This document shows positions 28,703 through 41,840 of a stretch of 64,000 nt of DNA, piece after piece. A model generated the notes under the pieces. It saw nothing but the letters and a program-made list of their open reading frames with translations. It did no database searches and was not told the DNA's origin. The first letter of the stretch is position 1. Each line of letters begins with the position of its first letter. Origin of the DNA: Candidatus Pacebacteria bacterium CG_4_9_14_0_2_um_filter_40_15 (GTDB lineage: Bacteria > Patescibacteriota > Microgenomatia > UBA1400 > PJMF01); assembly GCA_002788675.1 (NCBI GenBank), contig PFRS01000005.1, forward strand, positions 314,635 to 378,634, written 5' to 3'. Position numbers and translations under genes: made by a program.

Positions 28703-29155
28703 TTACAAATAATCATCGATCTTAATTTTCTTTTGCTGCATCAATATCTGAAATGAGTTTGGTCTCTGCATGAGTTCTTCTATATTTTCAGGAACAATTT
28801 GCCAACTCAAACCGTATGTATCTTTACACCAACCACACTGCTCAGAATCAGGATGTGCAGAAAGTTTACTCCAATAGTAATCTATCTCTGATTGGTCTTT
28901 ACAAAACACAGCAAAAGATACCGCTTCAGTAAATTTGAATTCGTCACCTGCATTTATAGCGGTAAAGGCCTGACCATTTAATTCAAAATCGATTGTTAAC
29001 ACCTTACCCGCAAATTCCTTTTGAAAATCTGCTAGGCCTTCTTCAGGATAGTAAACAGTACTAATAACTTTACTATCCTTAAAAACTGATGTGTAAAATT
29101 CTACGGCTTCTTGAGCATTTCTTGAAAACCACAAGTTGGGAATAATTTTTTTCAT
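28703..29155 (-). CDS. VOC-superfamily protein, PhnB/3-demethylubiquinone-9 3-methyltransferase-like domain
   Basis: The N-terminus IIPNLWFSRNAQEAVEFYTSVF is characteristic of the PhnB-like family, and the length is about 150 aa. Confidence 0.6.
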   Translation of the reverse strand: MKKIIPNLWFSRNAQEAVEFYTSVFKDSKVISTVYYPEEGLADFQKEFAGKVLTIDFELNGQAFTAINAGDEFKFTEAVSFAVFCKDQSEIDYYWSKLSAHPDSEQCGWCKDTYGLSWQIVPENIEELMQRPNSFQILMQQKKIKIDDYL

Positions 29156-29177
29156 ACTTTTAACCCTTTCAATGGAT

Positions 29178-29528
29178 TTATTTTCTTAAAATTTTTTCAA
29201 TTGTTTTACCTTTTGCCAACTCATCTATCAACTTATCCAAGAAACGGATCTCTTTCATTAGTGGTTCTTTAATTTCTTGTATTTTTACACCACATATACT
29301 ACCTGTAATCAAAAACCTAGAAGGATTTAATTTTGTTGCTTGTTTAAAAAAAGTCTCGAAGTCTGTTTGTTTTTTTATGTGAGCATCCAGATCATGTTGA
29401 GAGTAACCTGTTAACCAGGTAATAATCTCATCTACTTCTGATTTAGTTCTTCCTTTTTTCTCAACTTTTGCAATATAAAGTGGATACACACTGGCAAAAC
29501 TCATTGTATAAATTCTTTGTGAAGTCAT
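29178..29528 (-). CDS. DUF2200-family protein
   Basis: [39 protein letters not shown] matches my recollection of the DUF2200 family consensus. Confidence 0.5.
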
Positions 29529-29588
29529 AGTATGGTATATCCTTTTTTTGAATTATCAGTTTATAAATAGTTATTCGGCTAGAGCTAT

Positions 29589-29969
29589 TTATGCTTCAAC
29601 TTCAACAACAAAACCACCATATGCCATTTTTTTCATATCAAATGGCATTTGAAAATCTTTGTATTCTGAGGCATTTTCACCCATCTCTTCCATGACTTTA
29701 GCATTAACTTGATCCCGATGTTCTTTTGACTTAAACACTATAAATGAAAACCAAACCGATTCACTGTTTTTTGCGCCTGCCATTTCTGTAAATGAGCGTG
29801 ATTTTTCCTCACCCATTTCTTGTGCAGCCATGTCATCTCCACGACACTCATAATATTCTAATGCACCATGCTTCATCCAGGAATCTCTGCCATCTTCGGC
29901 CATTTTTTTATATTCTTCAGATTTGTCTTTTGGGACTACTAATACGAATCCATCAATATATTTTGACAT
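29589..29969 (-). CDS. DUF1428-family protein
   Basis: YIDGFVLVVPKDKSEEYKKMAE...GALEYYEC at the N-terminus and a C-terminal YGGF are typical of DUF1428. Confidence 0.55.
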   Translation of the reverse strand: MSKYIDGFVLVVPKDKSEEYKKMAEDGRDSWMKHGALEYYECRGDDMAAQEMGEEKSRSFTEMAGAKNSESVWFSFIVFKSKEHRDQVNAKVMEEMGENASEYKDFQMPFDMKKMAYGGFVVEVEA

Positions 29970-30146
29970 ATTTGCCTTCCGAATAGTTTACTTTTATGAA
30001 AGTATATCAGAAGTTTAAGCGTCCACTGCGTGGTATTACACCTACTTGAAGAAAAAAGTATTGCTGAGTATCTGGAACAATTGTGGTATTATTGGCTCAC
30101 AGCTATAGAGGAAATTAGAAACTGTTTTACCTGAAAAAATTGAAAA

Positions 30147-30428
30147 CTATGATTTGTTTTTCCCAGTGAGAATAAGTGTGTCTGAGGCGTCGTTGTGAAC
30201 TTTTCCACTACCGACATGTTTACTGCTGATTTTTGAACCGTTCTTAATGACATGAAACAATGCCATGCCATGTCCACGACCCAGCTCATACTCATCTTTT
30301 AGCCAAGTAAGTACTTCGCTTGCTTTAGTACTTTTACCAAAACCTTTCAGTTTAGCTTCATCTAAAAGCTGTTGTGGAGTTTTACCTGTTTTTTCTTCAA
30401 TTTTATCTAGGTATGCTTGAAACGACAT
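30147..30428 (-). CDS. DUF4287-family protein
   Basis: MSFQAYLDKIEEKTGKTPQQLLDEAKLKG is the recognisable DUF4287 N-terminus. Confidence 0.5.
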   Translation of the reverse strand: MSFQAYLDKIEEKTGKTPQQLLDEAKLKGFGKSTKASEVLTWLKDEYELGRGHGMALFHVIKNGSKISSKHVGSGKVHNDASDTLILTGKNKS

Positions 30429-31715: not shown

Positions 31716-32375
31716 TTAAAGATTTTTTGTGCTAATGAGTTCTTGCTCTAACTTGGCAATATTACTAAAAATCATGTTATGATCGACAAATTCAACTAAT
31801 TTTTTTTGGGCTAATTTACCTAACTCAATACTAACTGTTTCTCTAGCGACCCCAACTAACGAGGCAATATCTTGATGAGTGAAACGATGCTGTACAATTA
31901 TTTTAGTCCCATTTTTATTACCAAAATAGGTAGCCAGGTAGAGTAGAACGGAAATAACTCTCCTGTACGCATCACTAAAAACTAAGTGTTCGATTCTTGC
32001 GAGTGATTCTTCATAGCGTCTGAGTAGTTCACACATTAGCTCAGAAATTAAATCTGGCTTGTTTTTAATAAACTCCAAGACCTGATTCTTTGGAGCTCTA
32101 CCAATCTCAACAGGTGTAAGTGCCTCATAAAAATATACGTTTGGCGTATTGTTGAAAGCCCATACCATGGGGAAATAGGAAATAGGTTGCAGAATATGTA
32201 AAGTTAATTCTTCACCAGTATGCGAAATAATATATTGGCGAACATATCCTTTAGTGAGGCAAAAAATACCTTGAGGGTCATCATCCGCCCTGATCAGCAT
32301 TTCTCCTTGTTTATACAATCGCAGTTGAAACTGAGAAAAAAATTCTTCAAATACTTTGGTTTTACTTTTATTCAC
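31716..32375 (-). CDS. Crp/Fnr-family transcriptional regulator
   Basis: A cNMP-binding-like beta-roll is followed by a C-terminal HTH (RFTHQDIASLVGVARETVSIELGKL). Confidence 0.7.
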   Translation of the reverse strand: MNKSKTKVFEEFFSQFQLRLYKQGEMLIRADDDPQGIFCLTKGYVRQYIISHTGEELTLHILQPISYFPMVWAFNNTPNVYFYEALTPVEIGRAPKNQVLEFIKNKPDLISELMCELLRRYEESLARIEHLVFSDAYRRVISVLLYLATYFGNKNGTKIIVQHRFTHQDIASLVGVARETVSIELGKLAQKKLVEFVDHNMIFSNIAKLEQELISTKNL

Positions 32376-32529: not shown

Positions 32530-33426
32530 CTAATCTTTCAAAGATGATATATCAATGCTTTCGGAAATATCACCTGGGTTTAAATCTAATTGAAAATATT
32601 GACTTCCGTCACTGCCTTTTGAATTTATTTCTATTTCTAAATTAACTGGCTTCTCATTAATAGTGATAAAAAGATAGTCATTGAAAAAAAATGCACCTTG
32701 CTCAGGCTTGATTTCAGAAATATCACAGCTTGCAAGTCTGTCAGAACATTGAATGTTTGTTCTGTAATTTCTAGTAATGTCAATATTAGGTAAAAATGAA
32801 GACAATCCCATTAAATAATTGTCACAAGTCGGCGTAGGTTTTTCTGGTAAATTTAAATCATAAATAGAGTCCTTAATATATCCCTCTGAAAGCCTTGCAT
32901 TTATTGATATACGTTCATCGTACCTATCTGAGTTAACCTTTAGCATAAAACAAATAGTATTTTTACCACTCTTGAAATATGAGTCCAATCTTTCAATATA
33001 ATCTTGAAGCAATTCGATGTAATCGGCTACATCTTGCCTTGATTTAATTCCATCAAAAGGAAATCTGATTAATGGATTAACTAAATTTGGTAGTTCTTCT
33101 TCCAATTCTTGAATCTCATCTTTAATTGCCCGCACTGTCTCTTCGGCTGTTAACTTATAAAAACTTGCATCTATTTCAAACTTTGTAGTTGAGTTTTTAC
33201 TCTTTTCATTTGCAATATATTCTTTTCTCCACACATTATATATGGATATAAAAACAATGATTATTAAATAATAATTAGTCAGACTTTTGGGTAAAGTATA
33301 TGCGTCACCATTGCTGATATAAACAGAAATAAAATCATAAACAGATGGGAGCAACAATGCCAAATTTGACCACTGCAAAAAAACTCTACTGATAAATATG
33401 TAAATTTTAATAATTTCTTTCTTCAT
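32530..33426 (-). CDS. hypothetical membrane protein, last gene of island cargo operon (possible effector)
   Basis: 298 aa with two N-terminal TM helices (LALLLPSVYDFISVYI and YYLIIIVFISIYNVW), then a coiled coil and an Asp/Ile-rich C-terminal domain. Its start overlaps the upstream gene's stop (ATGA), which implies translational coupling. Confidence 0.45.
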   Translation of the reverse strand: MKKEIIKIYIFISRVFLQWSNLALLLPSVYDFISVYISNGDAYTLPKSLTNYYLIIIVFISIYNVWRKEYIANEKSKNSTTKFEIDASFYKLTAEETVRAIKDEIQELEEELPNLVNPLIRFPFDGIKSRQDVADYIELLQDYIERLDSYFKSGKNTICFMLKVNSDRYDERISINARLSEGYIKDSIYDLNLPEKPTPTCDNYLMGLSSFLPNIDITRNYRTNIQCSDRLASCDISEIKPEQGAFFFNDYLFITINEKPVNLEIEINSKGSDGSQYFQLDLNPGDISESIDISSLKD

Positions 33427-35249
33427 AATTTCTCAAGTTCATTTTTCAAAAAATAGGCAGCAGACATGTGGTTTTTTGCAATGCTTTTATCTAAATCTCT
33501 ACTTAGCACTCTCTTACTTCTTCTTTCTATATCTCTGCTCAATCTATGTTTTAGTTCAATTAAATTTTCATTTTCTGTTCCTTCAAACTTAAACTTTAAA
33601 AAATGACATCCAGTGATTACATATACCTTTTCATCCAATCCTGCTTCCTCTTGGCTTTCCCACAAAGCTTTTGGGAAAGGTGCGCTCATATTTATTGTCT
33701 TATTAAAAAATAACTTAGCTACATTTACAGCATCAGTATTTTTTACAGATTTAACTGTTCCAATATAAGTTGATGCGCCCCCGTAAATGAAATTACTTGA
33801 AAGCACATGATTTGAGATGCAAGCATTATTAAAAACAAAAGGAAAGGACTCTGGGTCAGACAAACTTGAAAATGATGGAATAAAGTTCTTTGAAACTCCT
33901 TTTGTAACTATTACATTACAATAATTTACGTTTTTCACTTTTCTCTGTTTTAAAACTTTCCAATCTTTTCTCTTCAACTTTGAGAACTCTGACACTATTT
34001 TTTTCGATGAACCCGGTTTATAAGTTTTCTCATACCATGGGCTTCCATCTAACTCTACAAATTCATAGAAGCTTTTAACATTAATTATGGCATCTTCACC
34101 TGTCCCAAAACCTGTGGGTTCGAAGGAATCTATAGCATCAACCACTATGACATGCTCACAGCCTCTACTATCAACAAACTGTATATCAAACCTTTGACCT
34201 TCTGGAAGTCCTCCATGACTACATATAAACAATAAATCGTAGGGATAAAACTGAATAGAATTGCTTAATTCGTAGTTTGTAAATTGATTATCCCAAAACT
34301 CTTTGGTAATAACTTCTTTTTGAGCCAACAAGTCACTCACATCATCTGTTTCAGAATCAGAAAAGAATCCAGTATCTACGAGAAGCGCTGATTTCACGAT
34401 TATTTCAGGGTTTGCTATTGATTCAGCGATAAAGTAGCCAGGCATTATTCGTCCTAAAATATGAGTTGATGCAATATTAGGATAGAAATAACCATAAGGA
34501 ATTTCATCAGTATAAAATGTCACAAAATCATAAGCTTCGATTTCACCAAAGTCCGCATCTAGCTCTGATTTTATACTTGCATTAATTTCTCTAGCTACAT
34601 CGCCTCTCGCTTCATTTGAATCATTATCAAAAATCAAAGCGGCAATTTCTTTAGAGGAATATTCTAAATCTGTTTGTATGAATTTAATATCAGCGTTAAT
34701 GGAAAACGCATAGTTAGCAACTATGACAGGAGACAACTCATCATCAATATCGTAATAAACACAATGCTTACTTGTTTGTTTAAATGAATATTTATAATTA
34801 GCTTTATTCGTAATTACCAATCTTTGTTTGTTCTTTTTTGCTATTAAAAGTGCTTGAGCAACTTTCTGTTTTTCTGGCTCACATTCTAAATTCCCCTCAA
34901 ACACAATATTCATTGGTTCTGCGATTTCCGACTTTATTTGAGATTTTTTTGTTACTGTTATGTATCTTTCTTCTGGAATTCGCAATTGGTCTTTGATGAT
35001 TTTAATGTATTTAGGATTAACACCCGCAAAAATACATATCTCAGGCCTAATCTTAGCCAAAATATTGTTTAGCTTTATTAATTCGTTACTCCAGTCATCT
35101 CTCAAAAACCTTGGTAATTCAAAAACACAAAAATAATCATTTGGTTCATAAAAACAACTTGATATTTGAGCAGCTAATATATGGTTCCCACTTATACATA
35201 TAACTTTATTTTTTATTGTCGGTGCGTTATCTGAATAGCTATGCATCAA
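33423..35249 (-). CDS. large hypothetical protein with caspase/CHAT-like His-Gly and Ala-Cys motifs (tentative protease)
   Basis: 608 aa. LLFICSHGGLPEG has the hydrophobic-x-S/G-H-G pattern of caspase-fold His. About 130 aa downstream, FVFNNACISN has the hydrophobic-A-C-x-S pattern of the caspase-fold Cys. There is no P-loop. The function is inferred only from these motifs. Confidence 0.4.
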   Translation of the reverse strand: MMHSYSDNAPTIKNKVICISGNHILAAQISSCFYEPNDYFCVFELPRFLRDDWSNELIKLNNILAKIRPEICIFAGVNPKYIKIIKDQLRIPEERYITVTKKSQIKSEIAEPMNIVFEGNLECEPEKQKVAQALLIAKKNKQRLVITNKANYKYSFKQTSKHCVYYDIDDELSPVIVANYAFSINADIKFIQTDLEYSSKEIAALIFDNDSNEARGDVAREINASIKSELDADFGEIEAYDFVTFYTDEIPYGYFYPNIASTHILGRIMPGYFIAESIANPEIIVKSALLVDTGFFSDSETDDVSDLLAQKEVITKEFWDNQFTNYELSNSIQFYPYDLLFICSHGGLPEGQRFDIQFVDSRGCEHVIVVDAIDSFEPTGFGTGEDAIINVKSFYEFVELDGSPWYEKTYKPGSSKKIVSEFSKLKRKDWKVLKQRKVKNVNYCNVIVTKGVSKNFIPSFSSLSDPESFPFVFNNACISNHVLSSNFIYGGASTYIGTVKSVKNTDAVNVAKLFFNKTINMSAPFPKALWESQEEAGLDEKVYVITGCHFLKFKFEGTENENLIELKHRLSRDIERRSKRVLSRDLDKSIAKNHMSAAYFLKNELEKL

Positions 35250-35252
35250 TTT

Positions 35253-35924
35253 TTAATCCTGTCTCTCTTGCCAAGGGGCTATATTGCTCTCCCCAGTTTC
35301 TTCTGTTCTTACTTCTCTAGGACTAATGACCTCTTTACTAAAAACAATATCTGGTAAATCATATTTCTTATCGTATTCAAATGCCTCTTTTCCAACGTTA
35401 ATTTCAAAAACAGATGTTGTGGGGTTTACTACAACCAACTCAGCAATTGTATCCGGGTGGTTTCTCACATTCCTAACTGCCCATATTGGATAATCTATTA
35501 ACTTCTCATTTGCATACTTCTTTATCTCTTCATAATCAACACCATCTGTAGTAAATAAATGTACAAGCATCAAATATTCTGAAGAATAAGCTCCGCTCAA
35601 TTTCCTAGTCCTAATGAGCTGTTCAAGCAAAGACTCTTTAGATTTACGATAGCTAGTTAATTCAATAGTGGTTATATCCATTGACACACCATTTGGCTGC
35701 ATGAGATATGCATCTGGCGGGTCTTGCAGCGGCATTCGTAGATAAGTTGGCAAACCTCTAATTTTACTCAACACAAACGCTGCTATTGCAGCAATTCTAG
35801 ACTCTCTGACTACCTTATTCTCAGGTTTTATTAAAGCCCCAACACCTTGCTCCTGTTCAAATTTTTGAATATGCATGAATGTGTTTGTCGGAGAATGCCA
35901 TCTTTTATTAAATTGTCTTTTCAT
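35253..35924 (-). CDS. hypothetical protein (island cargo operon)
   Basis: 223 aa with no recognisable motif. It is tightly packed between neighbours, with a 4-nt gap to the downstream gene. Confidence 0.4.
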   Translation of the reverse strand: MKRQFNKRWHSPTNTFMHIQKFEQEQGVGALIKPENKVVRESRIAAIAAFVLSKIRGLPTYLRMPLQDPPDAYLMQPNGVSMDITTIELTSYRKSKESLLEQLIRTRKLSGAYSSEYLMLVHLFTTDGVDYEEIKKYANEKLIDYPIWAVRNVRNHPDTIAELVVVNPTTSVFEINVGKEAFEYDKKYDLPDIVFSKEVISPREVRTEETGESNIAPWQERQD

Positions 35925-36023: not shown

Positions 36024-36836
36024 CTATCCCTTAGCAATTGCGTCAGCCCAACTGTATTTATCATCTTTGTAAATCTTTTTCATTTTTCTATCAAAATCTC
36101 TCCAATTTTTTACCAACTCTGGCATCTCAATCTTTTGTTCGTGAGGAAGTCCTATATCTGCATTGAAATTTAGCGGATTAATTTGAAAACCATTTTTTGT
36201 AACTAGTGCAATCTGCAAATGTTTGCTCACACCCGGATGAGGATTTCTAAAAACATCGTATGACAATACAACTCCCAATACCTGTGCGTAACCAAATTGA
36301 TTTCCTACCTCCATCTGCATAAGCTTCTCAGGCTCACTATGAATTCTTTCCAAATCATCTAGATAGACTTGCTTATTGTTACCACTTCCAATCGATAAAG
36401 GACTATGCACCCTTGAAGCTTCATACTCAAAACTGGGTGCTTTTAACTTCGCTACAAAAGACTTTGGTTGTCCTTTACTCCCATTATCTGCTATAGGGTC
36501 TACTGCAACTATAATCATGGAGAACGGTCTTTTCTTTTCTTCAGGAAGCTTTGAGTATAGTTCTTTCGCCCTTTTACCCCACTCTCTGGCTAATTGGTCA
36601 GGAATCCATCCTCCTTTACTCCTGGATGACATAAAGTCCCTTAAGGCTTGAGTAAACATAAACCCTGTTTCTATATCACCACTAAAACCAGACATAGCAA
36701 ACTCACCTACTGGATATATTTTTTGAACAACATCATGGAAATCTTCTTTACCATCAGGGAAAGATACAGTAGCTTGAACATCAGAGATTAAAACACCATA
36801 GCCAAACATTGTAGGAATACCAATAACCCAAGTCAT
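36024..36836 (-). CDS. proteasome beta-subunit/Anbu/HslV-like Ntn-hydrolase (Thr1 peptidase family), putative
   Basis: The N-terminus MTWVIGIPTMFGYGVLISDVQATV has Thr at position 2, which would be the nucleophile once Met is removed. It continues as hydrophobic-G...GxVL(I/A)(S/A)D..(A)T with Asp about 17 residues after the Thr. QKIYPVGEFAMSGFSGDIETG then parallels the proteasome SKIhhI.....hGsGAGD block around Lys33. The length is 270 aa. Confidence 0.5.
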   Translation of the reverse strand: MTWVIGIPTMFGYGVLISDVQATVSFPDGKEDFHDVVQKIYPVGEFAMSGFSGDIETGFMFTQALRDFMSSRSKGGWIPDQLAREWGKRAKELYSKLPEEKKRPFSMIIVAVDPIADNGSKGQPKSFVAKLKAPSFEYEASRVHSPLSIGSGNNKQVYLDDLERIHSEPEKLMQMEVGNQFGYAQVLGVVLSYDVFRNPHPGVSKHLQIALVTKNGFQINPLNFNADIGLPHEQKIEMPELVKNWRDFDRKMKKIYKDDKYSWADAIAKG

Positions 36837-36870: not shown

Positions 36871-37179
36871 TTAAGAACTTAAGTATTGCTCTTTACACTC
36901 TTTGCGAAGATTATCTCTGCCGTTTGATGTTGCATCATATAATCTTGTGCAATCTTCTCCCTCAAGTCCATTATTCTCACAAGCTCTAGGAAGTGCTTCT
37001 ATGTTGTTAGAGTACCATTCTTCAGCTTTACCTAAGCAGGATTCATATTGTTCCTGTCTGTCTTTTAGAGCCTCTTCCTCTTTAATTTTATCCTGTCTCC
37101 ACATAATGAATATTCCTAATATCGTGAACGAAATTATTAATGCTGCGATTACAAGTGAATTTATTTTTTTCATATTCAT
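36871..37179 (-). CDS. small membrane-anchored Cys-rich protein, first gene of cargo operon
   Basis: An N-terminal TM helix (LVIAALIISFTILGIFIMW) is followed by a charged domain with four cysteines. Confidence 0.4.
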   Translation of the reverse strand: MNMKKINSLVIAALIISFTILGIFIMWRQDKIKEEEALKDRQEQYESCLGKAEEWYSNNIEALPRACENNGLEGEDCTRLYDATSNGRDNLRKECKEQYLSS

Positions 37180-37233: not shown

Positions 37234-37455
37234 TTGATGGAAGAAAAGCAAAAAGTAACAGAACTAGTGGGAGATGAAATTCGAAAACACAGAGAAGAAT
37301 CTGGTCTTTCGCAGGAAGAACTTTCAGCAAAAGCTGGTTTATATAGAACCTATGTTGGTCATGTAGAAGTAGGTCGTTACACACCTTCAATCTATACTCT
37401 CTTCAAGATAGCCAGAGCTCTCAAAGTTAAAGTCTCAGAAATAATACCCTTTTAG
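37234..37455 (+). CDS. XRE-family helix-turn-helix transcriptional regulator
   Basis: The HTH_3 core is LSQEELSAKAGLYRTYVGHVEVGRYTPSIYTLFKIARALKV. Confidence 0.7.
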   Translation: MMEEKQKVTELVGDEIRKHREESGLSQEELSAKAGLYRTYVGHVEVGRYTPSIYTLFKIARALKVKVSEIIPF

Positions 37456-37633
37456 TGGGAAAAGACCCCTTATTCCCATATATGGAAAAAACTTTCTCTT
37501 TAATGAGAGAAGGTTAATAGCCTATGGGGGGGCTGGACATGGTAAAAACCCACCAAATAATTTCTGATATTGCAGTCTCAGCTCAAAAATTCGCACTAAA
37601 TTTTGTACTCGTATCTTATACAATATAGTTAAT

Positions 37634-38323
37634 ATGAGTATGATTATGGATAATGAAGAACTACATGAAGCTATTGCAGACTTTAGCATGAGTGAGCTTA
37701 GTGAAGTGAAAGACTTACTGGTTGAAATTATCTCAAGTTACAAAAACTTTCATAAGGATGAACTGGCATTTAGTATTCAAGTTGATACTAAAAAAAAGAG
37801 AACTATTTACCTTTTAGAAGGTTTACTATCACATGCTGATATCTACTACACTCCAAGCACATTACGATGGTCTAAAGATGGTGAATACTTAGTTGATTTT
37901 GGTGCAAAGGATGGTGATTGGCTTGAATACTCAGCAGTATCTACACTAGAGCAAATACGAAAAGCAATTAATGACAGACTTGTAAATCAAGCTGATTCAA
38001 AATTGAAGCTATCAACCAAAAACAACTTGATTCATATTGTGCATTACAGAAAAGATGGCTCAATAGTTACAGCAAAAATTTTAGGAAATTCTAATAGTGG
38101 AAAAATTTTAAGTTCTTTGAGAAAGAATTCAGCGATGACTCTAAGTGAATTATCTAAAGTCATGAATGAACCAAGAAAACATGCCGATAGTCCTCTTCCA
38201 GAAAAGAGAGTCCACGATGCCATCAAATACATTAGAGATAAACTCAAAATTGAAGCTAACTCACCAAATGACATTTTCAATATCGTTGGCAAAGAATGCC
38301 AGCTAATCATTCCTACTGAATAA
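37634..38323 (+). CDS. hypothetical protein with C-terminal OmpR/PhoB-type winged-helix DNA-binding domain
   Basis: The C-terminus RVHDAIKYIRDKLKIEANSPNDIFNIVGKECQLI parallels the trans_reg_C recognition region (VDVHIRRLRKKL....I.TVRGVGY.L). There is no receiver domain. Confidence 0.4.
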   Translation: MSMIMDNEELHEAIADFSMSELSEVKDLLVEIISSYKNFHKDELAFSIQVDTKKKRTIYLLEGLLSHADIYYTPSTLRWSKDGEYLVDFGAKDGDWLEYSAVSTLEQIRKAINDRLVNQADSKLKLSTKNNLIHIVHYRKDGSIVTAKILGNSNSGKILSSLRKNSAMTLSELSKVMNEPRKHADSPLPEKRVHDAIKYIRDKLKIEANSPNDIFNIVGKECQLIIPTE

Positions 38324-38421
38324 ACTTCCATAACTTCCGAAAAAATCCGACAAACTCTTGGCTAAATTGCTAAGAGTTTTTTGTTTTTAACCGAAGTAAA
38401 TTACTAGAGAATATATCTAGT

Positions 38422-38670
38422 ATGAAGAACAAAACGAATTATTATAGCTCTGATTTATCACTGGTCACTACTCTTTCTTTAGACTTTCCAATCATTGGAA
38501 TAGATAGAAGAAATCCATCTAGGATTATCTTTGAATTTGAAAGCTCTAGAGAATTATCCGCCCGAATAAAAGAATACTGGAATGCTGAATTATTTATTGA
38601 GCCACAACGATTTTTTACACAACTAAAGTATATAAAAGCACAAGTATTTGGGAGGCCTAATGCTGAGTAA
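38422..38670 (+). CDS. hypothetical protein
   Basis: An 82-aa ORF in the island backbone. Confidence 0.3.
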   Translation: MKNKTNYYSSDLSLVTTLSLDFPIIGIDRRNPSRIIFEFESSRELSARIKEYWNAELFIEPQRFFTQLKYIKAQVFGRPNAE

Positions 38671-38836
38671 TAAATCAGTAATCAGCCTCCAGCAAGTCAT
38701 GAACGAAGATGGTTTACATCTAAACCAAGAAGAGACAAGGTCTCTTGGTGAGTTGTTAGTCAGTATAGGACTTCAATTAAAAATGAGTATTAAAAATAAT
38801 AATGAATATGAAAATAAAAACACAAAGCGTAGTTGA
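38648..38836 (+). CDS. hypothetical small protein
   Basis: A 62-aa ORF that overlaps its neighbours. Coding status is uncertain. Confidence 0.2.
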   Translation: MGGLMLSNKSVISLQQVMNEDGLHLNQEETRSLGELLVSIGLQLKMSIKNNNEYENKNTKRS

Positions 38837-39644
38837 TACTGCACACTATTTTCTATCACAACGAGTAAGCATTATTCCTGTCACAAAAGACAAGAAGCCG
38901 TATGCAGGGTTTAGTTGGGATGCATATAAAAAACGCTTTCCCACTCAGGATGAAATAGATATCTGGTTTAGATATGTATATCCAAATGCAAATTTAGCCA
39001 TAGTAACTGGAGCGCTTTCAAAACTAATAATACTAGATATAGACCCCAGAAATGGTGGTGATATATCTTTGTTAAAAAACAATAAAAGCCCATCAGTTTC
39101 AACACCAAACAATGGAAAACACATATATTTCAGACCAACTAACCTTGTAAAATCTGCCAAGCATAGTGCACTAGGATATGACCTACTCTATGAAGCTTTA
39201 GCTCTTGTCCCGCCCTCCCTTACAGTAAATGGTGCATATGAATGGATAAACTCATTTAATAGAAATAACATAGAAGAGTTTCCAAAATATTTACTTAGCA
39301 AGCTAGAACTCATTCAACCTAAACAGAATGAAGCTTCTGCCAAACCACTTAGTCAAAAAAAAGGCAATCAAAAAACTCAGTTAAGAGGTATTGAGGTTAG
39401 GCACGCACGAGATTATCCCCTAGATAGATTGCTATTAAGTGATGGTGTAAATCTCATCCAACGAACAAATAGCTACCACCTTACCTGCCCATTTCATAGT
39501 GATAGGAAGTCTTCAGCTGTTTACTATCCATCCACCAACTTGGTTTATTGCTTCAAATGTTCAAGAGCATTTAATCCAATTGATTACCTAACGATAGCAA
39601 AAGGTTATTCATTCAGGGAAGCCTTAAAGGAATTAACAGAATGA
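38802..39644 (+). CDS. bifunctional primase-polymerase (Prim-Pol) N-terminal domain protein with CHC2 zinc finger
   Basis: The N-terminus IPVTKDKKPYAGFSWDAYKKRFPTQDEIDIW...NLAIVTG...LIILDID matches the Prim-Pol pattern (PVxxxKxP....W.......#....W......NhGhhhG...hhhhDhD). The C-terminal CPFHSD...CFKC is a CHC2 DnaG-type zinc finger. Confidence 0.6.
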   Translation: MNMKIKTQSVVDTAHYFLSQRVSIIPVTKDKKPYAGFSWDAYKKRFPTQDEIDIWFRYVYPNANLAIVTGALSKLIILDIDPRNGGDISLLKNNKSPSVSTPNNGKHIYFRPTNLVKSAKHSALGYDLLYEALALVPPSLTVNGAYEWINSFNRNNIEEFPKYLLSKLELIQPKQNEASAKPLSQKKGNQKTQLRGIEVRHARDYPLDRLLLSDGVNLIQRTNSYHLTCPFHSDRKSSAVYYPSTNLVYCFKCSRAFNPIDYLTIAKGYSFREALKELTE

Positions 39645-40051
39645 AAAGCAAGGCATTAAGAATAAAAGAAAAGAGAACAAAAGGTTTTCTTAAATTTCCA
39701 AGAAAACTTATTGAGCTTGTTCTCAGTGGAGATGTATCTGATAGAGCTTTCAGTCTATACCTGGTTATTATCAACCTTGCTGTTTATTCTGAAAATAGTT
39801 CCTACTATGGATGCCTTGAACTTAATCCTCATAACCTTTCAGAAATTTTCTCTAAATCTTCAAATACAGTTAGCAAAAACTTTAATGAACTTCTCTCACT
39901 TGGTCTCATTAACAAAGTAGACAAAGATTTGATTGAGGTTATCAACTTCAAAAAACTGTTTGATGATACTCAATATATGGAGGAAGCTTCCTCAGATTTA
40001 GTTAATAAAGTTTCAAAAATGAGAGGAGAAATATCACATATGAAAAGCTAA
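39641..40051 (+). CDS. hypothetical protein (island backbone)
   Basis: 136 aa. It overlaps the Prim-Pol gene by 4 nt. Confidence 0.35.
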   Translation: MKSKALRIKEKRTKGFLKFPRKLIELVLSGDVSDRAFSLYLVIINLAVYSENSSYYGCLELNPHNLSEIFSKSSNTVSKNFNELLSLGLINKVDKDLIEVINFKKLFDDTQYMEEASSDLVNKVSKMRGEISHMKS

Positions 40052-40175
40052 GCAGCACTTTTCACCTATGTACTGGTGAATTTAAATGCTTATTAAGGTT
40101 CTTAATGTTATTAGGTTTCTTAGTAAGAAATACATAAACAATAAAGTATATATACCTGTGAATACGTAGGTTAGA

Positions 40176-41780
40176 ATGAAAGATAATATGAACAATAAAA
40201 ACATAGCTGCACTCTGGTGCAGAGTAAGCAGTCCAGACCAAGAAACTTCTGGGTATTCACTACCTGCTCAGGAAGAACTTTTAAGAGAGTACGCTACACG
40301 AAAAGGAATTCAAAAGGTTGATTTTTTCTCTGTTTCAGAAAGTGCTAAATCTAGTCAAGTAAGAGCAAGTTTTAAAGAGCTGTTCAGCCATGTAAAAAAA
40401 CATAACATCAATATAGTAATTTGCGAAAAAGTTGACAGATTAACCAGAAACTTTTACGACATGATAATGATTGATGAATGGCTTGAGAAAGACCATGAAA
40501 GAGAAATACACCTCGTAAAAGATTCGCTAGTTCTTCACGCTGGCTCTCGTTCTCAGGATAAATTAAATTGGAACTTAAAAGTTTTATTAGCAAAAAATTA
40601 CATTGATAATCTCAGAGAGGAAGTTAAAAAGGGTCAACTGATGAAACTCAAGCATGGCTGGCTACCAACTAGACCTCCATATGGTTATAAAACTGAAGGA
40701 AACAAGGGGCACAAAATTCACGTCATAGATAATGAAACTGCACCAATTGTAAAGAAACTCTTTCAACTCTACTCAACTGGCAACTACTCACTTAAAGCCA
40801 TTACAGAAAAAGCAAATGAGCTTGGTTTAAGAAGTTCAAAGGGTAATCCAGTTGTTAAAAGTAGAATACACAAACTGCTTCAGGATAAGTTCTACATTGG
40901 CATTAATATTTGGAATGATACTGAGTATCCTGGTAAACAAGAAACATTCATCGAGGAAGAATTATTCTACCTGGTGAAGAGGGTTATGAAAGGTGGCTTT
41001 AACAATACACGCACTTACTCAAAGCATAACTATCTTTTTAGAGGAATGTTTAAGTGTGAACACTGTAAAGGCACAATCACCTGGGAAGAACAGAAAGGTA
41101 TTGTGTATGGTCACTGCAACCACTACAAACCATGCCCCTCAAAAGATTGGGCTCGTGAAGATTCTGTCGAAAAGCAAGTTAAAAAGTCATTAAAGTCACT
41201 GGTAATAAAAAACAAGCGAGTATTAAACTGGCTAAGAGATGAACTGAGCACACGCATTCATGAAGAAACTGATGTATATGTAGCTTCAATAGAACAACTT
41301 AAAAAAGACTTAGTGCTCACTGAAAGGGCTCAAGAGCGACTCTATGATGACAAGCTTTATGAACGTATCCCTGAGTCAATGTATGACCGAAAGGCAAATG
41401 AGTTTAAGAATAAGACTAAGAAGCTAGAGAAACAAATAAAGGAGCTCTCTGGTGGCACTGATAAAGCTAGACAGGTCGGACTAAGTATCTTTGACCTTGC
41501 ACAAGGTGGTCATATCATTTATGAAAAAGCTGATATTGAGAAACGTCAGCTACTTTTAAAACTGGTATATAAAACAAGAGAAATTTTCGAGGATACTTGT
41601 AGCTTAGAGTATACGGAAGAAATGGCATTACTATTGAAAGCAGTCAACCAGACTAATCGTTCGAAACTGGTGAAAAAAGTTGAGAAAATGGAAGCTACTT
41701 TCGAACCATCTGAAAAGATTGATTTAGCAAGAAAAAGTGACTCTTTTATGTCCTTGCGGACTGGTTTGCTCCCCCGGTAG
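40176..41780 (+). CDS. large serine recombinase (integrase)
   Basis: It has a resolvase-type catalytic domain whose nucleophile Ser lies in LWCRVSSPDQ and a conserved DRLTRN. A recombinase domain follows, then a zinc-ribbon (CEHCKG...GHCNHYKPC) and a C-terminal coiled coil. Its stop codon at 41778..41780 lies inside the tRNA-Asn 3' end. Confidence 0.85.
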   Translation: MKDNMNNKNIAALWCRVSSPDQETSGYSLPAQEELLREYATRKGIQKVDFFSVSESAKSSQVRASFKELFSHVKKHNINIVICEKVDRLTRNFYDMIMIDEWLEKDHEREIHLVKDSLVLHAGSRSQDKLNWNLKVLLAKNYIDNLREEVKKGQLMKLKHGWLPTRPPYGYKTEGNKGHKIHVIDNETAPIVKKLFQLYSTGNYSLKAITEKANELGLRSSKGNPVVKSRIHKLLQDKFYIGINIWNDTEYPGKQETFIEEELFYLVKRVMKGGFNNTRTYSKHNYLFRGMFKCEHCKGTITWEEQKGIVYGHCNHYKPCPSKDWAREDSVEKQVKKSLKSLVIKNKRVLNWLRDELSTRIHEETDVYVASIEQLKKDLVLTERAQERLYDDKLYERIPESMYDRKANEFKNKTKKLEKQIKELSGGTDKARQVGLSIFDLAQGGHIIYEKADIEKRQLLLKLVYKTREIFEDTCSLEYTEEMALLLKAVNQTNRSKLVKKVEKMEATFEPSEKIDLARKSDSFMSLRTGLLPR

Positions 41781-41840
41781 GATTCGAACCTACAACCTAC
41801 CGGTTAACAGCCGGGCGCTCTGCCATTGAGCTACAGGGGA
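41769..41840 (-). tRNA. tRNA-Asn (anticodon GTT), CCA not encoded
   Basis: A hand-folded cloverleaf on the minus strand has a 7-bp acceptor stem (UCCCCUG/CGGGGGA), a D-arm (GCUC-AAUGGCA-GAGC), the anticodon loop CUGUUAA, a T-arm (GUAGG-UUCGAAU-CCUAC) and discriminator G. Confidence 0.8.

Follow-up and report, generated by a model that had tools for sequence, protein, structure and literature searches.

In prokaryotic immunity, CHAT and caspase-like proteases are increasingly recognized as executioners and switches. To our knowledge, nearly all the studied examples rely on an infection-sensing partner, such as CRISPR, TIR or STAND proteins, and few defense systems are known in Patescibacteria. 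In the closest described systems, latent proteases of this kind are activated in defense, as documented for SAVED-CHAT (10.1101/2023.06.23.546230), type IV Thoeris (10.1101/2024.10.24.620036) and protease-effector modules (10.1101/2025.11.14.688446). The type IV Thoeris caspase and PCaspase are latent proteases that a signal switches on, after which many proteins are cleaved after Arg (10.1101/2024.10.24.620036). In SAVED-CHAT, the residues of the dyad H375/C422 lie 47 residues apart (10.1101/2023.06.23.546230). In this study, we analyzed a gene for a CHAT-type, caspase-fold cysteine protease from Candidatus Pacebacteria bacterium CG_4_9_14_0_2_um_filter_40_15. It is located on the minus strand (33423-35249) of a 64,000-nucleotide stretch of contig PFRS01000005.1 (positions 314,635 to 378,634; assembly GCA_002788675.1). 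This whole stretch is hereafter called the window, and coordinates are positions within it.

Transitive homology and fold place the protein in the CHAT family as a divergent member. It belongs to a distinct, uncharacterized and widespread family of about 600 residues. Sequence conservation and the structural model indicate that it is very probably an active CHAT-type cysteine protease. It is also quite likely that this active protease acts as a self-contained regulated unit. A previous, sequence-only reading of the same DNA had tentatively called a caspase-fold, possibly CHAT-type protease from one HG and one AC motif. This call is now supported by the matches of homologues to the CHAT family, by residue conservation and by fold.

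Conservation, fold and family of the protease

The protease is encoded by an open reading frame of 608 residues that starts with TTG and has ATG as its second codon. Other gene callers place the start at this ATG (35246), which yields a protein of 607 residues, and the closest homologue uses the same start. The NCBI entry (P0001, 545 residues) begins at Met64, so that 63 N-terminal residues are missing, among them P10, Y39, P46 and R47, which are conserved in the family. Our analysis corrects this truncated database annotation from 545 to 607 or 608 residues. The reading frame and both motifs of the sequence-only reading are real, with LLFICSHGG spanning residues 339-347 and FVFNNACISN residues 471-480.

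The proposed catalytic residues are His345, whose codon was checked at 34215-34217 of the minus strand, and Cys477, encoded at 33819-33821 of the same strand within the motif FNNAC. Since the protein contains 10 histidines and 11 cysteines, the motifs alone are weak evidence, and the real test is conservation. We examined 130 distinct homologues, comprising the aligned homologues and 80 further loci found by scanning 185,579 species genomes. His345 is invariant in this set (130/130), and Cys477 is kept in all the 127 homologues that cover it, the other three sequences being truncated and without that region. The motifs flanking the dyad are maintained as S/T-H-G/C/A and N-N-A/S/T-C-x-S across the 130 sequences. 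The 40-sequence alignment, where identity falls to 23%, has just seven columns without any change, two of which hold His345 and Cys477. Glu300 (codon at nucleotides 34350-34352) is kept in 129 of the 130 homologues. The sequence-only reading had proposed conservation of the His and Cys as a check of its call, and these counts bear the call out.

A search of 5.8 billion proteins yielded 56 homologues of the protease, including an identical hypothetical protein from a Candidatus Pacebacteria metagenome-assembled genome. Against 40 full-length homologues, the window protein gave expectation values (E) from 1e-88 to 1e-38. A precomputed label of the Pfam CHAT family (PF12770) is carried by 13 distant homologues, and in a fresh scan this family was matched by 23 of the 40 aligned homologues, with a best E of 1.6e-9. 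Nine matching homologues were examined and scored 25-38 bits, the gathering cut-off of PF12770 being 24 bits, and the matches span both the His region (profile positions 105-152) and the Cys region (212-273). Peptidase_C14 and C13, which the sequence-only reading had named beside CHAT as families to check, gave no Pfam match in the protease or its 40 homologues. CHAT membership is transitive, because it is the homologues, and not the window protein, that match PF12770. Some relatives are already named 'CHAT domain-containing protein' in NCBI, and a literature search found no study of this CHAT subfamily. The family is distributed over Patescibacteria, Pseudomonadota, Acidobacteriota, Bacteroidota, Planctomycetota, Bacillota and others.

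A subgroup of close homologues is longer (840-853 residues) and carries a fused N-terminal extension of approximately 245 residues. It includes P0003, P0006, P0008, P0010-12, P0014, P0016 and P0021, together with the loci L003 (8001-10535), L012 and L013. The extension has no Pfam family and occurs in fused form only. We considered the 844-residue homologues as fusions with the 223-residue protein encoded upstream of the protease in the window, and found no similarity.

The AlphaFold2 model computed on the family alignment is confident, with a predicted local distance difference test (pLDDT) of 91.5 and a predicted template-modeling (TM) score (pTM) of 0.91. The structure was read through its secondary structure, these two scores and the Foldseek matches of the model. 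All 17 PDB matches at E <= 1e-3 are CHAT, separase or gingipain proteins. The same holds for the top 24 fold matches (all E < 0.01), which include no caspases and no legumains. Among the structures retrieved are the SAVED-CHAT filament (8tl0, E 3.8e-6), human, yeast and nematode separases, gingipain RgpB (4ief), Csx29 in Craspase (8eey/7zoq) and the CHAT anti-sigma factor DdvA (8rw5). Given top PDB matches to CHAT, separase and gingipain, the model agrees with the caspase-hemoglobinase fold anticipated by the sequence-only reading. According to the model, the protease half (approximately residues 287-556) has the clan-CD caspase-hemoglobinase fold.

The first half of the CHAT core (residues 287-350; 34200-34391, minus strand) is predicted to alternate strands and helices (strand 287-292, helix 301-310, strand 314-319, helix 325-334, strand 339-343) and to end in the catalytic His345. 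It includes E300, and in homologue P0033 it is matched by PF12770 positions 105-152. The second half (residues 469-556; 33582-33845, minus strand) contains strand 471-474, Cys477 within the motif FNNACxS, helix 481-490, strand 494-498 with a G-T motif (G497, T498), and more helices. Eight homologues match it with PF12770 positions 212-273, at 25-36 bits (cut-off 24). In the order of the core strands, His345 comes after the third and Cys477 after the fourth. As the sequence-only reading had supposed, a hydrophobic strand directly precedes each catalytic residue (339-343 and 471-474). The protein ends in two helices (residues 557-608; 33426-33581, minus strand), which are the most variable part of the family.

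Between the His and the Cys lies a beta-rich insert (approximately residues 351-468; 33846-34199, minus strand) with conserved G351, D401 and W405, and its length across the family is roughly 85-120 residues. The two residues of a CHAT dyad are typically about 25-50 residues apart. The spacing of 132 residues between His345 and Cys477 falls outside this range because the conserved insert separates the His and Cys strands. A distance of about 130 residues, longer than in classic caspases, had been noted by the sequence-only reading. The distance is real and explained by the insert; it is a variant feature of an unbroken fold and does not count against the protease call.

The N-terminal module (residues 1-286; 34392-35249, minus strand) is the proposed regulatory or sensor part. 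It consists of two Rossmann-like alpha/beta lobes (approximately 10-112 and 118-240) and a conserved beta/alpha linker (241-286) that carries the near-invariant residues T244, G253 and H263. When modeled alone, the module reaches a pLDDT of 91, as confident as in the full protein, and module and protease are predicted to form a single compact body by packing against each other. Its fold has no significant match in the PDB (best E 1.9e-3, TM < 0.31), and the search retrieved no SAVED, TPR or separase structure. Racemases, ATCase and UDP-GlcNAc epimerase were considered as relatives of the module and rejected, as they are generic two-lobed, Rossmann-like matches with probabilities of 0.6 or less. 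When 1.84 billion proteins were searched with a profile of the module, 556 representatives matched. All of the best 150 of these are either proteins of about 600 residues that carry the module N-terminally or fragments of them, so that among these 150 the module appears, from profile matching, specific to the family. Its conservation is close to that of the protease core, and only the last two helices of the protein are clearly more variable. The first 300 residues had been left unassigned by the sequence-only reading. They still belong to no known family, but they can now be described as a folded, family-specific module.

Genomic context and proposed function

Across 88 loci of the family, the protease has no conserved neighbor. 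Many copies are flanked on both sides by genes of the opposite strand, and no remote homology was found among the variable upstream and downstream neighbors. As no partner gene is conserved, the data point to a self-contained sensor-plus-effector, and the self-contained regulated unit is a modestly favored conclusion. The only recurrent neighbors are large serine recombinases and small helix-turn-helix (HTH) proteins (7 loci). Large serine recombinases are present in 13 of the 88 loci, which represent 10 distinct lineages, mostly of candidate-phyla bacteria.

Within two genes of the protease (about 50 loci), we found GajA/GajB (Gabija), type III restriction-modification, LmuB (Lamassu), HmaB, ApeA-HEPN and a KAP NTPase, as well as several PADLOC candidate systems, UmuC/UmuD and integrases. 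Among the directly coupled upstream genes are those for an OLD-type nuclease, an Mrr-type nuclease, DUF2971 and YaaC, as well as many unknowns. This genomic company suggests a conflict or defense role. The association is qualitative and suggestive only, because the neighbor counts carry no background rate, and the pattern fits the cargo of chromosomal islands and defense islands. The 25 commonest neighbor families per library include no cas and no CD-NTase family. The protease family occurs in none of 50,697 phage records, none of 72,556 plasmids and a single contig of 2.9 million IMG/VR contigs, and a search of the BFVD viral structure library gave no match.

At locus L008 (1933-16444), the protease gene is located between genes for HATPase_c and 323-residue HELAH (HExxH) proteins on one side and genes for a DUF1156 methylase-like protein and an SNF2 helicase on the other, with DUF499 upstream. 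This cluster resembles a multi-gene DNA-modification or defense cluster.

We infer a latent enzyme with a trigger, a cleavage specificity, a role in defense and, in the window lineage, an action on a membrane protein. The N-terminal module would hold the enzyme in a latent state until a ligand or a protein binds as the trigger. Alternatively, activity might be controlled by oligomerization, as in SAVED-CHAT and caspases. Once triggered, the protease would cleave proteins of the cell or of the invader. In this way, a single protein would serve as sensor plus effector in conflict or defense. In the window lineage, the two-segment membrane protein encoded by the coupled downstream gene could be a local substrate, an effector or an anchor.

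A possible specificity is indicated by E300, which directly precedes the first core helix (301-310). At this position, clan CD proteases carry their S1 determinant, which is Arg179 in caspases and Asp in metacaspases and paracaspases. Because a near-invariant acidic residue occupies the S1-determinant position, E300 suggests, by analogy, cleavage after Arg or Lys. The dyad (H345, C477) can be put to the test, and E300 supplies a hypothesis on specificity.

A defense role is a possibility that we take seriously without favoring it. In its most developed form, the proposal would see in this family of about 600 residues a new caspase-like immune module that consists of a single protein. A small molecule or a phage protein would signal infection to its previously unseen two-lobed domain, which would then unleash the fused CHAT protease. 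The module would travel as cargo of tRNA-targeting serine-recombinase elements and reside in defense islands of many phyla, including Patescibacteria. Taken as a whole, we consider this proposal rather unlikely.

Several observations weigh against an active, self-contained protease with a part in defense. The window protease itself has no match in Pfam, NCBIfam, PADLOC (E up to 1) or PHROGs (E up to 0.1), and PDB sequence searches with the protein, the full family profile and an insert-free core profile returned nothing significant. The best PDB match of the core profile is the Csx29 'CHAT domain protein' (8d9h_E), which is non-significant (E 0.86) and covers the region after the Cys, including the G-T motif. 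The CHAT assignment is transitive, through the homology of relatives and a predicted structure, and the Foldseek TM-scores are low (0.21-0.32), since only part of the chain aligns. As for the genomic context, roughly a dozen defense-type proteins were counted among 147 neighbors, a raw count without a background rate, and many loci of the family hold ordinary genes. At locus L001, the protease gene lies near housekeeping genes and without a recombinase. CHAT proteases also have roles outside defense, as exemplified by HetF and the anti-sigma factor DdvA.

Neighboring genes and alternative explanations

The protease gene belongs to a string of five minus-strand genes, which encode a membrane-anchored protein of 102 residues, an N-terminal nucleophile (Ntn)-like protein of 270 residues, a protein of 223 residues, the protease and a protein of 298 residues. 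Neither the protease nor its four neighbors in the string match PADLOC-DB 2.0 at E up to 1. The upstream 223-residue gene stops 3 nucleotides before the protease start. As described by the sequence-only reading, the stop codon of the protease overlaps the start of the downstream gene as ATGA. A scan for promoters and terminators gave no useful signal, as shuffled sequence contained more promoter-like sites.

The ATGA-coupled gene (32530-33426, minus strand) codes for the 298-residue protein, which comprises two N-terminal hydrophobic segments, a helical region and a C-terminal domain. Its hydropathy peaks are moderate (1.52 and 1.43), and those of its homologue exceed 1.6 at residues 15-33 and 46-64. 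This homologue, 36% identical, is encoded 4 nucleotides after a CHAT gene whose product, the closest relative of the window protease, is 52% identical to it, at the identical loci L001 and L092. Searching 5.8 billion proteins and scanning metagenomes turned up no further homologue, so that the family is known from the window lineage and L001/L092 only, each time directly after the CHAT gene. The protein matches no gasdermin, EACC1, Pepco or PADLOC model. We regard it as a candidate lineage-specific partner or substrate, and not as a family-wide partner. A gene for a Crp/Fnr-type regulator (cNMP-binding and HTH_Crp_2 domains; 31716-32375, minus strand) follows 154 nucleotides after the membrane-protein gene.

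At L001, the gene order is tRNA-Asn, an unrelated gene of 470 residues, the protease and the membrane protein, and the locus contains no recombinase, no Ntn-like gene and no 223-residue gene. Genes for DUF4287, DUF1428 or DUF1801, DUF2200 and 3-dmu-9_3-mt-like proteins are found downstream both in the window (28703-30428, minus strand) and at L001 (11247-16145). As these small downstream genes are shared, the two Paceibacteria genomes are syntenic around the tRNA-Asn island.

The strongest alternative is that CHAT protease and membrane protein form a two-gene module restricted to this subclade, in which the protease alone cleaves or controls the 298-residue protein and the other neighbors are unrelated cargo. 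The translational coupling by ATGA argues for it, as does the position of the membrane-protein gene directly after the CHAT gene in both lineages known to possess it. However, only two lineages are known, and they are syntenic more widely (tRNA-Asn, DUF4287, DUF2200, 3-dmu-9_3-mt), so that the adjacency may be inherited and not selected. Moreover, seven other relatives with 43-49% identity are without the membrane-protein gene. Altogether, we consider such a module unlikely.

Next to the protease string and divergent from it lies an integrative-element module (37234-41780, plus strand). It encodes an XRE-type HTH protein, a protein of 229 residues, a primase with Prim-Pol and CHC2 zinc-finger domains, a replication-organizer-like protein and a large serine recombinase. 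A tRNA-Asn gene (41768-41840, minus strand) overlaps with its 3' end the 3' end of the recombinase gene, which likely marks the integration site. The whole arrangement of gene string and element recurs unchanged in at least 23 contigs of this lineage, obtained from other samples, in which the protease is called with 607 residues. A recombinase gene that converges on a tRNA gene with a 3' overlap recurs, as it is found in the window (40176-41840), at L004 (12073-13619, tRNA-Glu) and at L007 (2070-3637, tRNA-Trp). The protease lies at the recombinase-distal end of the element at both L004 and L007. These data suggest that small tRNA-targeting integrative elements of candidate-phyla bacteria carry the protease at their far end. 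For the left border of the window element, neither a long direct repeat nor a displaced tRNA-Asn fragment was found. Of note, the 229-residue element protein (37634-38323, plus strand) weakly matches Csa3 (PADLOC, E 0.014) and Effector-associated domain 4 (Pfam, E 0.09), probably reflecting only a winged-helix resemblance.

The element also bears on a second alternative, namely that the enzyme is a housekeeping or element-regulatory protease. It would then cleave a repressor or an anti-sigma-type regulator of the element or the host, in the manner of ImmA-type anti-repressors or the CHAT protein DdvA. An XRE-type HTH gene is close by in the window and at six other loci, serine-recombinase elements recur, and DdvA is among the fold matches. 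Yet most of the 88 loci are without a nearby HTH gene or recombinase, and the family spans many phyla in unrelated contexts. We regard this regulatory role as improbable.

Upstream of the protease, the 223-residue protein (35253-35924, minus strand) has no known domain and no homologue beside other members of the CHAT family. The 270-residue protein (36024-36836, minus strand) is the one called an Ntn hydrolase by the sequence-only reading. It belongs to the same gene string, its link to the protease is unsupported, and it is a near-orphan with only 3 homologues. In these, T2, D19, K39, GFxG and GSG150-152 are invariant, and they are collinear with the motifs of HslV and proteasome beta subunits. 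Neither Pfam nor NCBIfam nor PDB sequence searches gave a match to the protein, and hhalign against an approximate Escherichia coli HslV sequence gave an E of 0.13; for these reasons, a highly divergent Ntn hydrolase remains a possible lead from sequence motifs. The first gene of the string (36871-37179, minus strand) codes for the 102-residue protein, which has an N-terminal hydrophobic anchor (3-29) and a Cys-rich tail and weakly matches Rz-like spanins in PHROG (E 0.006-0.035).

According to the sequence-only reading, the Ntn hydrolase and the protease might form a proteolytic cascade on the membrane protein. In such a scheme, both enzymes would act in sequence on the 298-residue protein and release or activate it, as caspases do with gasdermins. 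In its favor, the genes form a tight string on one strand, with the ATGA overlap between CHAT and membrane-protein genes, and this pair recurs in a second lineage (52% and 36% identity). The 270-residue protein, moreover, keeps the HslV-like T2, D19, K39 and GSG, and modules of a protease plus a pore-former are well documented (10.1101/2025.11.14.688446). The comparison of the 88 loci lends the cascade no support, because the Ntn-like gene, like the 223-residue gene, accompanies no other member of the family. The second lineage with the membrane protein is without both genes and has the unrelated 470-residue gene instead. In addition, the Ntn identity is unproven, the membrane protein matches none of the gasdermin, EACC1, Pepco and PADLOC models, and a 99-nucleotide gap separates the Ntn-like gene from the rest of the string. 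The three-protein cascade is thus very unlikely.

Finally, an inactive caspase-fold scaffold, or a chance resemblance in a protein of different fold, might account for the missing direct Pfam match and the unusual dyad spacing, but it is extremely improbable, given that the dyad and its flanking motifs are strictly kept in 130 sequences whose identity falls to about 23%, that the fold matches point to active proteases and that relatives pass the Pfam CHAT threshold.

Comparison with known protease systems

The preferred reading, an active CHAT-type protease that works as a self-contained regulated unit, can be set against several known systems. The similarity to the protease-effector death modules (gasdermin, EACC1, Pepco, MBL and alpha/beta-hydrolase zymogens) lies in a protease that adjoins a possible membrane-acting protein, and it is confined to the window lineage. 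The 298-residue protein, however, matches none of those effector families and is not conserved with the protease family. The type IV Thoeris caspase and PCaspase would share the proposed logic of a latent and then triggered enzyme, and E300 would fit a preference for basic residues. These enzymes, however, are of the Peptidase_C14 type and work with a dedicated signal partner (TIR, or CRISPR via SAVED-CHAT), and none was found for the window family.

Separases (MEROPS C50) align by Foldseek over 375-390 columns (E 6e-6 to 1e-3), that is, beyond the active domain, and this extent recalls their pair of pseudo-protease and active protease. On the other hand, separases are eukaryotic, possess a very large helical N-terminus, are controlled by securin and have a short dyad spacing, and both the identity (7-11%) and the TM-scores are low. 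Gingipain R (MEROPS C25, 4ief) gave the highest TM-score of the search (0.32 by query, 0.43 by target) over about 457 columns. Its catalytic domain likewise comprises two alpha/beta subdomains, the second of which contains the dyad. In contrast to the window protein, gingipain R is secreted, serves in virulence and carries a propeptide and an Ig-like domain, and no sequence similarity exists (8-9% identity).

The comparison with CHAT proteins such as SAVED-CHAT (8tl0), Csx29/TPR-CHAT (8eey, 7zoq, 8d9h) and DdvA (8rw5) shows a shared caspase-hemoglobinase fold with the His-Cys dyad at the ends of adjacent strands. The CHAT proteases of immunity also share the G-T motif after the Cys and the layout of an N-terminal sensor followed by a C-terminal protease. 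The N-terminal module of the window protein, however, is of neither the SAVED nor the TPR type, and the two dyad residues stand 132 positions apart, owing to the beta-rich insert, compared with 47 in SAVED-CHAT. Furthermore, the window family has no CRISPR, CBASS (cyclic-oligonucleotide-based antiphage signaling system), TIR or sigma-factor partner and no conserved substrate gene. If the preferred reading holds, the family would offer a handle on defense in the little-understood candidate phyla radiation. In comparison with the partner-dependent systems described so far, a compact non-SAVED, non-TPR module joined to a CHAT protease without a conserved partner would then be a candidate for a self-contained sensor-effector.

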